Shown: positions 1,837 through 52,045, counted from the first letter of the stretch. The stretch: 64,000 nt of DNA from a virus (IMGVR_UViG_2565956614_000003), one strand, 5' to 3'. Program-made: numbers and translations. Notes: generated from the sequence alone by a model not told the origin.

Positions 1837-1858
1837 AGAAGTTACTTTGCATACCATT
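1837..1858 (+). promoter_or_regulatory. Late-promoter-like element (gagaagtta-N7-taccat) upstream of lydA
   Basis: 6/9 match to recurrent 9-mer AACAAGTGA, 7-bp spacer, TANNNT hexamer; weaker than other copies. Confidence 0.25.
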
Positions 1859-1885
1859 ACCTCCTGACAACGTAGGAGGGAACTT

Positions 1886-2215
1886 GTGCTTGACACACAG
1901 GAATTAGCTCCAGTTGCAATTGCGCTCCTGCTTTCAGTAATTGGTGGGATAGGCACGTTCCTGATGGATGTCCGAGACGGTCGCCAGTCTGGCAATTTGT
2001 TGGGATTGGTTACGGAGATCTTTGTTGCAGTGACAGCTGGCGCGGTGGCGTACCTATTGGGGCAACACGAGGGCTGGGAGTTATCAATTACGTACTTAAT
2101 GGTAACGATAGCCAGCAATAACGGTCATGAGGTGATTTCAGGGATGAAACGAGTGAATATCGATAGCATTCTGAATGTTCTTACAAGTTTGGTGAAAAAG
2201 GGAGGCGGGAAATGA
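1886..2215 (+). CDS. lydA: Holin LydA
   Basis: 109 aa with transmembrane segments and charged C-terminus; synteny with P1 lydA-lydB. Confidence 0.8.
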   Translation: MLDTQELAPVAIALLLSVIGGIGTFLMDVRDGRQSGNLLGLVTEIFVAVTAGAVAYLLGQHEGWELSITYLMVTIASNNGHEVISGMKRVNIDSILNVLTSLVKKGGGK

Positions 2216-2655
2216 TTGGCTGGGGTGTATGCGTTCTTGCGTTAGCCTTAGCCGATCGCTATTTGCTAAAACGCAAGGACATCACGCATTTAGAACTTGG
2301 TGATGTGGAAATTAAACCGGGTTTCATCCGGGTGCCGTTCAAATACCGGTCTAAATTCCCGTTTTTGCGCGGCGCAACGGTCAGATATTGGATCCGCGAT
2401 GTTCAGAAGCCGACGACAGTGATTGAAGGCGAACAACGTTGTTTGACGTCGGCTGAACAGGGCGAAAACAGTGAATGGTTGTACATACCCACTGAATATA
2501 TGGGTAAAGGAGAGCGACTGTGGCATTTCAACGTCATGGTTACGCATGGCGACTCGTTCATTAACCCGTTGTATCGGATTTTCCCTGTTACTCAGCAAAT
2601 CCGCAGAAGTTACGTAATAAATCTCGCACAGGATGTGTCAGATGACGAAAAATAA
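2212..2655 (+). CDS. lydB: Antiholin LydB
   Basis: 147 aa; start overlaps lydA stop (translational coupling); synteny. Confidence 0.7.
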   Translation: MIGWGVCVLALALADRYLLKRKDITHLELGDVEIKPGFIRVPFKYRSKFPFLRGATVRYWIRDVQKPTTVIEGEQRCLTSAEQGENSEWLYIPTEYMGKGERLWHFNVMVTHGDSFINPLYRIFPVTQQIRRSYVINLAQDVSDDEK

Positions 2656-3244
2656 GTATGCAACGGTCGATTTTGACCAGGTTAATGAAAAGGGGCTGAA
2701 ATCCCTTATCGCGGCGATCAATAAAACCGGTGTTACGGTAATTGAGGTTGACTCCAGCAACCGCGCAACAACGAAAGATGGCGTTAAAGTTAAAACCGCA
2801 AAGCTGGTTCTTAACGACGGACAAATTCTTGCCATACAGGTAAACGATACTGGCGATATATCGTCTGTGAGGCTGAATGGAAAAGCTATTCCTAACGCTC
2901 AGTCGCCGGATATCAAGACGCTTGGTACCGTCATGGGGCAAGCGGCCCGCAAAAACTCCGCAAAATTCCAGAAATCACTGATCGCCAAAGCGAAACGTGT
3001 TGCCAATCCGGTAGACAAGAAACCGGCAGTAAAATCCAACTTTCAGCGCCTGCAAGAGGCAAAACAGCGGAATGCTCAGGTGGTTGCCGCTTATAAATCA
3101 GCGCAGAACTCGGTGTCTTTCAATCAACAGCAGATCACTGATTTGCGGGCGAAGCTGGATAAGGAGACAGGCCGACTCAATAACGAAAAGGCCCGAAATG
3201 GCGAACTCAAACGCCGTCTTAAGCAACTGAAAGCAGGAAATTAA
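2633..3244 (+). CDS. hdf: Hdf, DarA-related head protein of the Dar anti-restriction system
   Basis: 203 aa; shares segment ...KNSAKFQ... with the downstream DarA-like protein; synteny. Confidence 0.65.
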   Translation: MCQMTKNKYATVDFDQVNEKGLKSLIAAINKTGVTVIEVDSSNRATTKDGVKVKTAKLVLNDGQILAIQVNDTGDISSVRLNGKAIPNAQSPDIKTLGTVMGQAARKNSAKFQKSLIAKAKRVANPVDKKPAVKSNFQRLQEAKQRNAQVVAAYKSAQNSVSFNQQQITDLRAKLDKETGRLNNEKARNGELKRRLKQLKAGN

Positions 3245-3245
3245 C

Positions 3246-5165
3246 ATGGAACAGTTCAATATCAATAAAGGGGTGACGATCAAGCCTGGGCTTGACGTGC
3301 TTCCCCCGCCAGTGACTGATGATGAATATCGCGCATTAATGGCCGGTGAGGACCGCTATCTGATGACGGAATCCAACACCCTGGAGGAAATCGAGGCTAC
3401 GTTCTTCTATGACACGCCGATCCACTGGTGTGCTACGGATTTACTGGAGGCGATTAGTTCTACTCGTTTGCAGTTACACCGGACCATGCAGGCATTTGTC
3501 CGGGCATTGAACCAGAAGCTGAATGGTACCGGAATCTCTGCGGGGAGTGATAAAACGGGGGAGGTGGCCCAGAGCGGCGCGCGCGCGATCGGCGGTGCTG
3601 AAATTGGCCGGGCACGTAACGTTAACGGGCTGCCGGTCCTGCCAGCCATTATTCCGCTCAGTGATGGTCAGACTATCAGCATTCTGTTTCATAGCCCGAC
3701 AGCGGAAAACCGGATCACCAATAGCGATACGCTGGTTGCTTTCCAGTTCTTACTGAATAAAAAAGACGTTACTCACACCGTTGCTCCGATGAGTGGACGT
3801 GATATGACGCTGGCGCAGGTCACCATGAAACTTGCCAACCTTGCAGAGAAAAACTCGGCAAAATTCCAGCGTGCGCAGAAGAAGAAAAAAGCCCTGGTTG
3901 ATGAAATAACCCAACTACAGGCTGACAGTGACCAGAAAGAGGATGCCATGAGCGACCTCGCGGATCAGGTGGCAGCGGTAGAAGGGCAGAAGGTAGATCT
4001 GGAGCAGAAAATTAACGCTGTTGCATCGGAAGCGGATTCTCTTTATGAAGAGAATGAGCGTTTGCAGACGGAGATTGATCAGCTCAATCGCACAGGTGGG
4101 CGCGATACCATTGATCCAGCGGGGATGACTGGTGGGCACTCGCGCGCGCTGACGGATCGCCTTGCCAGTATCAAAAATCGTATGCATATGAACGGGGAAG
4201 TGACGCTCAGTAATGGAGCATCAATGAAGCAATTCATTGGGGGCGGCGAAGGGTATATCCAGTTAACCGATCCGGATGGCAGCGTATACATGATCAAGGC
4301 TAAATCCATACAGGGTGTGGACATGGCAGATGCGATCGGCAAGCTGTTTAAAGCCTATAAAGCGGGTAATGTATCGGAATACCTGGTCCAACCAGAAGAA
4401 CATAAACCGGAAAACGTCGAACCTGAACCAGCGGAGGATACCGGTAGCTCTTCGCCTGAACCAGAAGTCTCTGTAGGTGCATATCGATATGCCCTGCAAA
4501 TGCGTCCGGCGGCCCCTGGCGCAATACCTGAAGGTAACAAAGCAATTCTGCCGCGCCCTGATGAAGGTGACCCGTATTATGAATATGCACGCTACGGCAT
4601 TGCTACTTACGATACCCCGCTTTCTGATCAGCAAATGAGTGAGTACGACCTGAAGTTATTGCCTCGCGAGGATTCTTTCGACTTCCTGGCGAAGACACTT
4701 ACTAATGGTCCGTTTGGCAAATATGCACAAAAAGCTCTGGAGCTGGCCACCAGCTCACCAGACGAGTTCCGCGTAATGCTGAAAACTCAGTTTCAAAAAA
4801 CTTTCCCCAATATTGCGTTTCCTGGGGGCGCTGGCACCGAGAAAATGGTGCAGAGCATGATCAATGCATTGCAGGCCGAAGTCGGTGAGATTACTCAGCC
4901 AGAACCGGCCCCGGCACAGCCTGATGAAACGGTTAGCGAAGCAGATGCAGAGGCTAATAAAGCCATTGAATATCTCAATAACGTGATGGATATACAAAGC
5001 ACTGACATGGCGGAGATCCGTAACGCCCGGGGCAATGTCCGGGAAGCGATTGCAGCCCTTCAGGCTGCCGGACGTTTTGAGGAAAACGAAGAGCTGGTTA
5101 ACGGCGCAGCTCGCCACCTGGCTGATCTGTTGGTAGCAATCCAGAAAGCGGGGGTAGCGGCATGA
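3246..5165 (+). CDS. darA: DarA, internal head protein of the defence-against-restriction system
   Basis: 639 aa, coiled-coil central region; position and size match P1 darA. Confidence 0.8.
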   Translation: MEQFNINKGVTIKPGLDVLPPPVTDDEYRALMAGEDRYLMTESNTLEEIEATFFYDTPIHWCATDLLEAISSTRLQLHRTMQAFVRALNQKLNGTGISAGSDKTGEVAQSGARAIGGAEIGRARNVNGLPVLPAIIPLSDGQTISILFHSPTAENRITNSDTLVAFQFLLNKKDVTHTVAPMSGRDMTLAQVTMKLANLAEKNSAKFQRAQKKKKALVDEITQLQADSDQKEDAMSDLADQVAAVEGQKVDLEQKINAVASEADSLYEENERLQTEIDQLNRTGGRDTIDPAGMTGGHSRALTDRLASIKNRMHMNGEVTLSNGASMKQFIGGGEGYIQLTDPDGSVYMIKAKSIQGVDMADAIGKLFKAYKAGNVSEYLVQPEEHKPENVEPEPAEDTGSSSPEPEVSVGAYRYALQMRPAAPGAIPEGNKAILPRPDEGDPYYEYARYGIATYDTPLSDQQMSEYDLKLLPREDSFDFLAKTLTNGPFGKYAQKALELATSSPDEFRVMLKTQFQKTFPNIAFPGGAGTEKMVQSMINALQAEVGEITQPEPAPAQPDETVSEADAEANKAIEYLNNVMDIQSTDMAEIRNARGNVREAIAALQAAGRFEENEELVNGAARHLADLLVAIQKAGVAA

Positions 5166-51680: not shown

Positions 51681-51682
51681 AA

Positions 51683-51928
51683 TCAGTCAAATCCTGCCGG
51701 TCGCATGCCATATTTACGCTGTTTTGCGGCCTGCTCTTCCCTGTGCCATTGCGCACACTCAGCGTCACAATAGATGCCTGATTCGATCGGTTCATTGCAG
51801 TAACGACACTTCCCTGTAAATACCTGGCTCACGACCTGTGCCTGCTTTCTGATGTTATCGATGGCCATGTCTTTGAGAGCTTCTAATTGATTCATGCTCA
51901 GCTCTGCATCATCAACACGTTCTGCCAA
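51683..51928 (-). CDS. TraR/DksA-family C4 zinc-finger protein
   Basis: 81 aa; CRYC...CDAEC pattern. Confidence 0.55.
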   Translation of the reverse strand: MAERVDDAELSMNQLEALKDMAIDNIRKQAQVVSQVFTGKCRYCNEPIESGIYCDAECAQWHREEQAAKQRKYGMRPAGFD

Positions 51929-51985
51929 TTTTGTTTCCTCGTGAAGAACCTACTTAAGGGCAGAATGATACATTTCACAATCAAA

Positions 51986-52002
51986 ATTGCACTAATAATT
52001 TT
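51986..52002 (+). promoter_or_regulatory. C1 operator-like site (15/17) in divergent region
   Basis: attgcactaataatttt. Confidence 0.45.
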
Positions 52003-52023
52003 CTTTTATTGAGTTAAATATTC

Positions 52024-52045
52024 AACAAATGACTAGCGATAGAAT
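52024..52045 (+). promoter_or_regulatory. Late-promoter-like element (aacaaatga-N7-tagaat) upstream of baseplate-like block
   Basis: 8/9 9-mer, 7-bp spacer, TANNNT; 30 bp upstream of ATG at 52075. Confidence 0.4.

Follow-up and report, generated by a model that had tools for sequence, protein, structure and literature searches.

Putative Lpa-dependent late promoters upstream of lysis, head, packaging and tail genes in a P1-like phage-plasmid

The viral sequence IMGVR_UViG_2565956614_000003 was analyzed here as a stretch of 64,000 nucleotides (the window), in which a short element, consisting of a conserved box followed by a TANNNT hexamer, recurs upstream of lysis and structural genes. The element was picked out in an initial annotation made from the sequence alone, which proposed that its copies are late promoters of the type activated by Lpa. 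In megablast searches of phage records, 10 kb of the window matched P1, RCS47, SJ46 and their relatives with 98.3-98.5% identity over 97-100% of the query. Alignment of the whole window to the P1 record AF234172 gave collinear blocks in reverse orientation, running from the cin/lydC region through lox to dmt; the minus strand of P1 corresponds to the plus strand of the window. Relative to P1, segments at about 1-1243, 8827-10320, 32396-34102 and 39773-45346 are replaced. Because P1-collinear blocks are combined with replaced segments, the source is, by its sequence, a mosaic P1-like (Punavirus-type) phage-plasmid, a close relative of P1 but distinct from P1 itself.

Six copies of the element are intergenic and co-oriented with lydA, lyz, prt, mat, pacA and gene 26, respectively. 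Written as the triplet before the box, the box, the gap and the hexamer, they are as follows. LPdar (1836-1857, plus strand; GAG AAGTTACTT TGCA TACCAT) is situated 28 bp before the lydA start at 1886 and would drive the lydA operon. LPlyz (11071-11092, plus strand; AAC AAGTGATTT GCAT TATCCT) lies upstream of lyz and is kept in Cronobacter phage JK004 before the lyz orthologue. LPpro (14793-14814, minus strand; AAC AAGTGACTA GTGT TAAATT) precedes the portal and head-processing genes prt-pro, with the TTG start of prt at 14750, and LPmat (28167-28188, minus strand; GAC AAGTGACTT GAGT CAGAAT) is found 19 bp before mat. LPpac (36815-36836, minus strand; GAC ATGTGACTT TCGT TACCCT) is 36 bp before pacA, the first gene of pacAB, and just downstream of lpa. 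Finally, LP26 (52024-52045, plus strand; AAC AAATGACTA GCGA TAGAAT) lies 29 bp before gene 26 and the operon 26-25-7-24-6-5, which encodes baseplate and tail functions. The initial annotation had located all six at or within 1 bp of these positions; at lydA the site begins at 1836 rather than 1837.

By BLAST mapping, inspection of the feature table and direct sequence comparison, all six sites are positional orthologues of late promoters annotated in AF234172, and their boxes do not differ from the "-22 regions" annotated in P1. Downstream genes, positions and architecture are shared with P1 and the sequences are nearly identical, with single-base changes in the spacers of LP26 and LPmat. A divergent element overlooked in the initial annotation, LPpmgL (52017-52038, minus strand; CGC TAGTCATTT GTTG AATATT), is the near-palindromic LP26 box read on the other strand; it is the orthologue of the P1-annotated LPpmgL and has a weak score of 11.1 in the position weight matrix (PWM) described below. 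Descriptions of Lpa-dependent late promoters date back to the early 1990s.

In the P1 record, every late promoter is entered with three parts: a "-22 region" of 9 bp, a gap of 4 bp and a -10 hexamer. When the annotated P1 sequences were extracted, the -22 box proved to be an inverted repeat, AAGT-N-ACTT, mostly preceded by RAC. This changes the register of the motif as first described, a 9-mer (AACAAGTGA) separated by 7 bp from TANNNT: that 9-mer comprises RAC plus the left two-thirds of the box, 3 bp off the -22 box, and the palindrome went unseen. The recurrence that it captured is real and above chance, but "the same 9-mer" overstates it: of the six sites, two (11071 and 14806) match exactly, while there is one mismatch at 52024 and 28180, two at the 36815 site (GACATGTGA) and three at the 1836 site (GAGAAGTTA). 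Against the published form, used here as AAGTNACTT-N4-TANNNT, the box has no mismatch at LPdar, one at LPlyz, LPpro, LPmat and LPpac, and two at LP26, where P1 is in the same two-mismatch state. The lydA site, which had been called weaker, is therefore not the weakest of the set, since it alone matches the published form perfectly. TANNNT follows the box at N4 in five of the six, and the weaker -10 noted at mat is CAGAAT. Moreover, the two bases immediately 5' of the box are A in 14 of 14 and C in 13 of 14 sites (six in the window and eight in JK004), and because these are as conserved as the box itself, the conserved block in the window and JK004 is best written as 12 bp, RACAAGTGACTT.

The window encodes its own Lpa. 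The lpa gene (36865-37317, minus strand) is intact and predicts a 150-aa protein that matches Pfam PF25716, BPP1_LPA (193 bits, E=2e-57), and PHROG 1704, Lpa-like transcriptional activator; the protein is 99.3% identical to P1 Lpa and 100% identical to SJ46 Lpa. A search of viral contigs for Lpa returned only loci 99-100% identical. P1 is reported to have 11 late promoters, whose Lpa (gp10) site is a conserved inverted repeat of 9 bp (PMC10695390). PMC1891329, citing Hansen 2003, describes Lpa as a sequence-specific DNA-binding activator with host SspA as co-activator; Lpa is thought there to contact SspA bound to RNA polymerase, with SspA not binding promoter DNA. We found no PDB match for Lpa and, in a literature search, no Lpa-SspA structure. 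Given the one-to-one correspondence with P1 late promoters, the encoded Lpa and the Lpa dependence described in the literature, the assignment of the sites as activator-dependent, Lpa-type late promoters appears sound.

Could the sites instead share no function and be random occurrences of a short, A/T-rich word that happens to lie near weak -10-like hexamers? The bare motif gives this some room. Two exact 9-mers, at 26108-26116 and 30367-30375 (both minus strand), fall inside res and cre; having no -10 and being in coding DNA, they were rejected as promoters and look like chance. With up to two mismatches allowed, the originally described 22-bp pattern gives 11 matches versus 5.1 expected, only about 2-fold over background. 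However, the exact 9-mer AACAAGTGA is present in five copies versus 0.55 expected in the window, and the full 22-bp pattern at up to one mismatch has five matches versus 0.37 expected, a count reached in 0 of 100 shuffles; this search recovers three of the six sites (11071, 14793 and 52024). The published form, again at up to one mismatch, has six matches versus 0.89 expected, also reached in 0 of 100 shuffles; five of the six are listed sites, and LP26 is not among them. The 12-bp RACAAGTGACTT pattern at up to three mismatches has 11 matches versus 2.6 expected, a count not reached in any of 100 shuffles.

Placement argues in the same direction. In a greedy gene map, 92% of the window is coding and 8% intergenic. 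Six of the seven sites scoring at least 19.9 in a PWM built from ten P1 promoters are intergenic, with the -10 ending 19-45 bp before a co-oriented start codon (binomial p=1.7e-6). Thus the motif is not equally frequent in coding DNA, which the initial annotation had named as a finding that would count against it; arithmetic from the gene map puts its density about 70 times higher in intergenic DNA. The result holds with a PWM made from held-out promoters only: using LPs, LP23 and LPsit, P1 late promoters located outside the window, the top four window hits were LP26, LPpro, LPdar and LPmat. Together with the coincidence with annotated P1 promoters and the conservation in JK004 described next, these statistics effectively refute the chance explanation, to which we give almost no credence.

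JK004 (93.8-kb genome) encodes an Lpa 67% identical to that of the window. Its seven best PWM hits all lie just upstream of genes corresponding to P1 mat, 23, R, 26, prt, pacA and lyz; orthology was taken from synteny (position and size), as every protein in the JK004 record is named hypothetical. When the six promoters shared between the window and JK004 were aligned pairwise, the box and -10 are identical at 77 of 91 positions (85%) versus 468 of 824 (57%) in the flanks (Fisher p=6e-8), so that the motif stands out as a conserved island. Indeed, the orthologues of LPpro, LPmat and LPpac are each identical at 14 of 15 specified positions. At shorter distance, viral contigs supplied 63 haplotypes of the LP26 region, in which all four variable columns of the 22-mer are at unspecified positions (p=0.005). 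LPpac is invariant in 46 haplotypes of related contigs, a comparison that cannot separate motif from flanks because the lpa-pacA spacer up to the motif is invariant too.

JK004 also carries late-promoter-like sites for which P1 has no annotated equivalent. One (83282-83303, plus strand; score 15.5) precedes gene_114, which is ssb by position, and diverges from the lyz orthologue; another (69127-69148, minus strand; score 13.9) precedes the small gene_100. A further site (23653-23674, minus strand; score 15.4) precedes gene_25, in a region that matches P1 upfB-ppfA-mlp in position.

The more distant phage D6 (MF356679) has an Lpa homologue only 31% identical and a single P1-type site (71093-71114). 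It has instead a shared motif, AAATCACA-N6-9-TANNNT, with nine matches versus 2.3 expected and no obvious -35; AAATCACA alone occurs in 17 copies versus 2.8 expected. The nine copies (minus strand: 19171-19191, 25221-25241, 27727-27747, 31511-31531, 38113-38135, 45491-45511, 54124-54144 and 71013-71033; plus strand: 19215-19237) lie before darB, lysozyme, prt, ddrB, lydA, R, pmgB, the major capsid gene and gene 26. The architecture of box plus TANNNT is common to both phage types, whereas the D6 box AAATCACA differs from the P1-type box, for example AAGTGACTT, and it looks as if activator and box have co-diverged in D6.

The window itself contains a single D6-type motif, AAATCACAAAGTGCATACCGT (1488-1508, plus strand), which is intergenic and 39 bp before lydC (1548-1811). 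Its first 12 nt are those of the D6 capsid-gene site and it is well placed for a lysis-gene promoter; about 1.5 matches to the loose pattern are expected per window, and it could be chance.

It might be argued that the sites are ordinary constitutive sigma-70 promoters, for example of the extended -10 type, used without a phage activator and with the upstream block serving as spacer or UP-like sequence. The -10 hexamers are sigma-70-like, and LPmat shares its -10 with the sigma-70 promoter Pmat annotated in P1, with TTGACA 19 bp upstream. The extended -10 TG is present at LPpro and at a further site within gene 7, described below. However, four of the six listed sites lack that TG, and no -35 hexamer was found at any site, the best match to TTGACA being at most 3/6 when spacings of 16-18 bp were searched; the absence of a -35 had also been recognized in the initial annotation. 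A conserved block that differs in D6, where Lpa is so diverged, is what would be expected of an activator site. Expression in P1 is also unlike that of sigma-70 early genes. In RNA sequencing (RNA-seq) of P1vir, the 37 genes of late-promoter operons have low signal at 10 min, nearly silent, and rise by a median of 6.8 log2 by 30 min, versus 4.3 for the other 64 genes (Mann-Whitney p=1e-13; PMC8201110 Table S1). With dependence on Lpa and SspA reported as well (PMC10695390, PMC1891329), constitutive sigma-70 promoters make a very unlikely account of the set.

Some P1 genes rise by at least 6 log2 between 10 and 30 min in the same P1vir data with no annotated late promoter upstream: darB (14826-21593 in the window), simB/simC, upfA-mlp-upfB and dbn. 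The LPpro box used in reverse was considered as a promoter for darB and rejected; the sole -10-like hexamer, AGGATT, leaves just 4 bp to the darB ATG.

Repressor sites are close to some of these promoters. The 17-bp asymmetric C1 operator consensus, ATTGCTCTAATAAATTT, has 14 sites in the window versus 0.33 expected. Olpa (Op94; 37388-37404, minus strand), with three mismatches, lies upstream of lpa and is the orthologue of P1 Olpa. Ossb/Op21 (11030-11046, minus strand; one mismatch) is 24 bp upstream of the LPlyz motif and belongs to the divergent ssb promoters, and O26/Op82 (51986-52002, plus strand; ATTGCACTAATAATTTT, two mismatches) ends 21 bp before the LP26 motif. P1 has Olpa, O26 and Ossb at the corresponding positions. 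Omat, annotated in P1, is about 35-50 bp upstream of LPmat and has four mismatches. One might thus propose that the element is bound not by Lpa but by another regulator, such as a repressor with a C1-related operator, or is a packaging or replication site; C1 operators do lie 21-35 bp upstream of LPlyz, LP26 and LPmat. Against this, the C1 consensus bears no relation to the box and its matches form sites of their own, the constant spacing of 4 bp to the -10 and the distance of 19-45 bp to start codons have the geometry of promoters, and the P1 literature assigns the box to Lpa (PMC10695390). We consider such a regulator or site highly improbable as the explanation.

The initial annotation had noticed the operator-like site near 52024, which is indeed O26, and suggested dual control of the gene 26 promoter. 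This agrees with O26/Op82 being annotated in P1, but the geometry points elsewhere. As annotated in P1, two predicted sigma-70 promoters of the divergent pmgL operon have their -10 and -35 elements overlapped by O26; the operator is also placed between gene 26 and a predicted sigma-70 promoter, P26, at about -58 relative to the start of LP26. At 10 min in the P1vir RNA-seq, the log2 change is 7.0 for pmgL, an early gene, and 3.4 for gene 26, one of the latest. Because of this overlap, distance and timing, the probable target of C1 at O26 is sigma-70 transcription; LP26 would come under C1 only by an indirect route, the repression of lpa through Olpa. Since Olpa is upstream of lpa, all the late promoters would be under indirect C1 control of this kind.

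Two further sequences in these regions deserve mention. At 37419-37440 (plus strand; CAC AAGTCACTC when read on the minus strand), about 15 bp beyond Olpa and upstream of Plpa, there is a -22-box-like palindrome with one mismatch and no proper -10. Lpa might regulate its own gene through this palindrome, which is however statistically indistinguishable from chance; by hand calculation, about 49 boxes with up to one mismatch are expected per window. A C1 operator-like sequence with three mismatches (ATTGCCCTAATGTATTT; 14880-14896, minus strand) falls within the 5'-terminal part of darB at a distance of 66 bp from LPpro, and is unannotated at the equivalent P1 position.

The scan also found a late-promoter-like site within a gene, unannotated and missing from the initial list: AAC AAGTGACTG GTGA TAACCT at 53729-53750 (plus strand), spanning codons 16-23 of gene 7. 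It matches the original 22-bp pattern exactly and has a PWM score of 21.0, versus 0.0045 such hits expected per window. It is identical in P1, yet not among the annotated P1 promoters. It is invariant in 62 close haplotypes, but most of gene 7 is likewise invariant; in JK004 it is degenerate (score 10.6), a synonymous ACT-to-ACC change breaking the box, and it is further eroded in a Pantoea relative. The site sits in a poorly conserved, acidic N-terminal segment, and for this reason conservation and polymorphism cannot decide its function; a contig scan based on gp7 gave only nine loci. In P1 RNA-seq, the step from gene 25 to gene 7 is about +1 log2 in the wild type and none in a dksA host. 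In D6, toxin-antitoxin genes are inserted between 26-25 and 7-24-6-5, and a separate promoter-like motif precedes gene 7, which sets a precedent for an independent 7-24-6-5 unit. We offer the gene-7 site as a candidate internal promoter for 7-24-6-5, one that may be active and Lpa dependent, with the balance somewhat against it. A broader proposal is more tentative still: that P1-type phages have at least one Lpa promoter beyond the 11 annotated, in gene 7, boosting 7-24-6-5 or uncoupling it from 26-25; that Lpa may read the asymmetric 12-bp RACAAGTGACTT and not only the 9-bp palindrome; and that the D6 box co-diverged with Lpa to AAATCACA.

A second and weaker candidate, also overlooked initially, falls within the 3'-terminal part of lydA, 42 bp ahead of lydB (2148-2169, plus strand; AAC GAGTGAATA TCGA TAGCAT). 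It has one mismatch to the 22-bp pattern and a PWM score of 17.0, versus 0.12 expected per window, and JK004 has no counterpart scoring at least 9. We propose it as a possible late promoter with low confidence.

Outside the promoters, the replaced segments carry features of their own. The segment at 39773-45346, counterpart of the P1 hot-lxr-upf-pmgV region, is largely replaced; parts of it match lambdoid and Stx phages with 90-99% identity, and no phage record covering at least 80% of it was found. Between c1 and pacB, at a place where P1 has nothing, an insert (32429-34104, minus strand) encodes an Ash-family protein (187 aa) and an ORF6N/KilAC antirepressor-like protein (371 aa); a C1 operator-like site with two mismatches (34081-34097, minus strand) lies ahead of these genes. 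The segment that holds IS1/isaA in P1 is replaced by an open reading frame of 281 aa (9647-10492, minus strand) with a C-terminal Tad2-like (Thoeris anti-defence 2) domain, Pfam PF11195 (E=2.5e-22).

Taken together, the six sites are very probably Lpa-dependent late promoters of a P1-like phage-plasmid, and belong to a set already described in P1. Several points weigh against this interpretation. The -10 sequences of LPmat (CAGAAT, as in P1) and LPpmgL deviate from TANNNT. The P1 promoter LPhot has no counterpart within the window, the region upstream of hot having been replaced. The consensus was drawn from the GenBank feature table and secondary citations, and the RNA-seq is of P1vir and gives gene-level fold changes rather than mapped starts. 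Finally, the function of the sites is transferred from P1: we infer that this phage behaves like P1, and take Lpa binding and the SspA requirement from the literature.

On the P1 model, C1 at Olpa would keep lpa off in the prophage state. Upon induction or infection, Lpa would be made and bind the element, centered near -22. Lpa and RNA-polymerase-associated host SspA would then let the sigma-70 holoenzyme start at promoters that it otherwise ignores, turning on the operons for lysis (the lydA operon and lyz), head (prt-pro and mat), packaging (pacAB) and baseplate and tail (26-25-7-24-6-5).

Other phages reach similar control by different means. The late promoters of Mu (lys, I, P and mom) are activated by protein C and use sigma-70 with a poor or absent -35 (PMC4461284). 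As in P1, a phage-encoded DNA-binding activator occupies DNA that overlaps the -35 region or lies immediately upstream of it; the Mu activator belongs to another family, with another site, and the sequence is unlike the P1 box. The C site is centered further upstream, at about -43, and Mu is not known to require SspA. T4 late promoters, served by gp55/gp33, are without a -35, with gp55 taking the place of sigma-70, and lambda Q works by antitermination at a single promoter. These systems resemble the P1 type in positive control of late morphogenesis and lysis genes (PMC10695390); the P1 type differs in keeping sigma-70 and in having many dispersed activator-dependent promoters.

For this phage-plasmid, the late transcription units would be assignable directly from P1, with little beyond that. 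The gene-7 site, the invariant AC that extends the -22 box upstream and the D6 box, paired with a diverged Lpa, could guide studies of how Lpa recognizes DNA.

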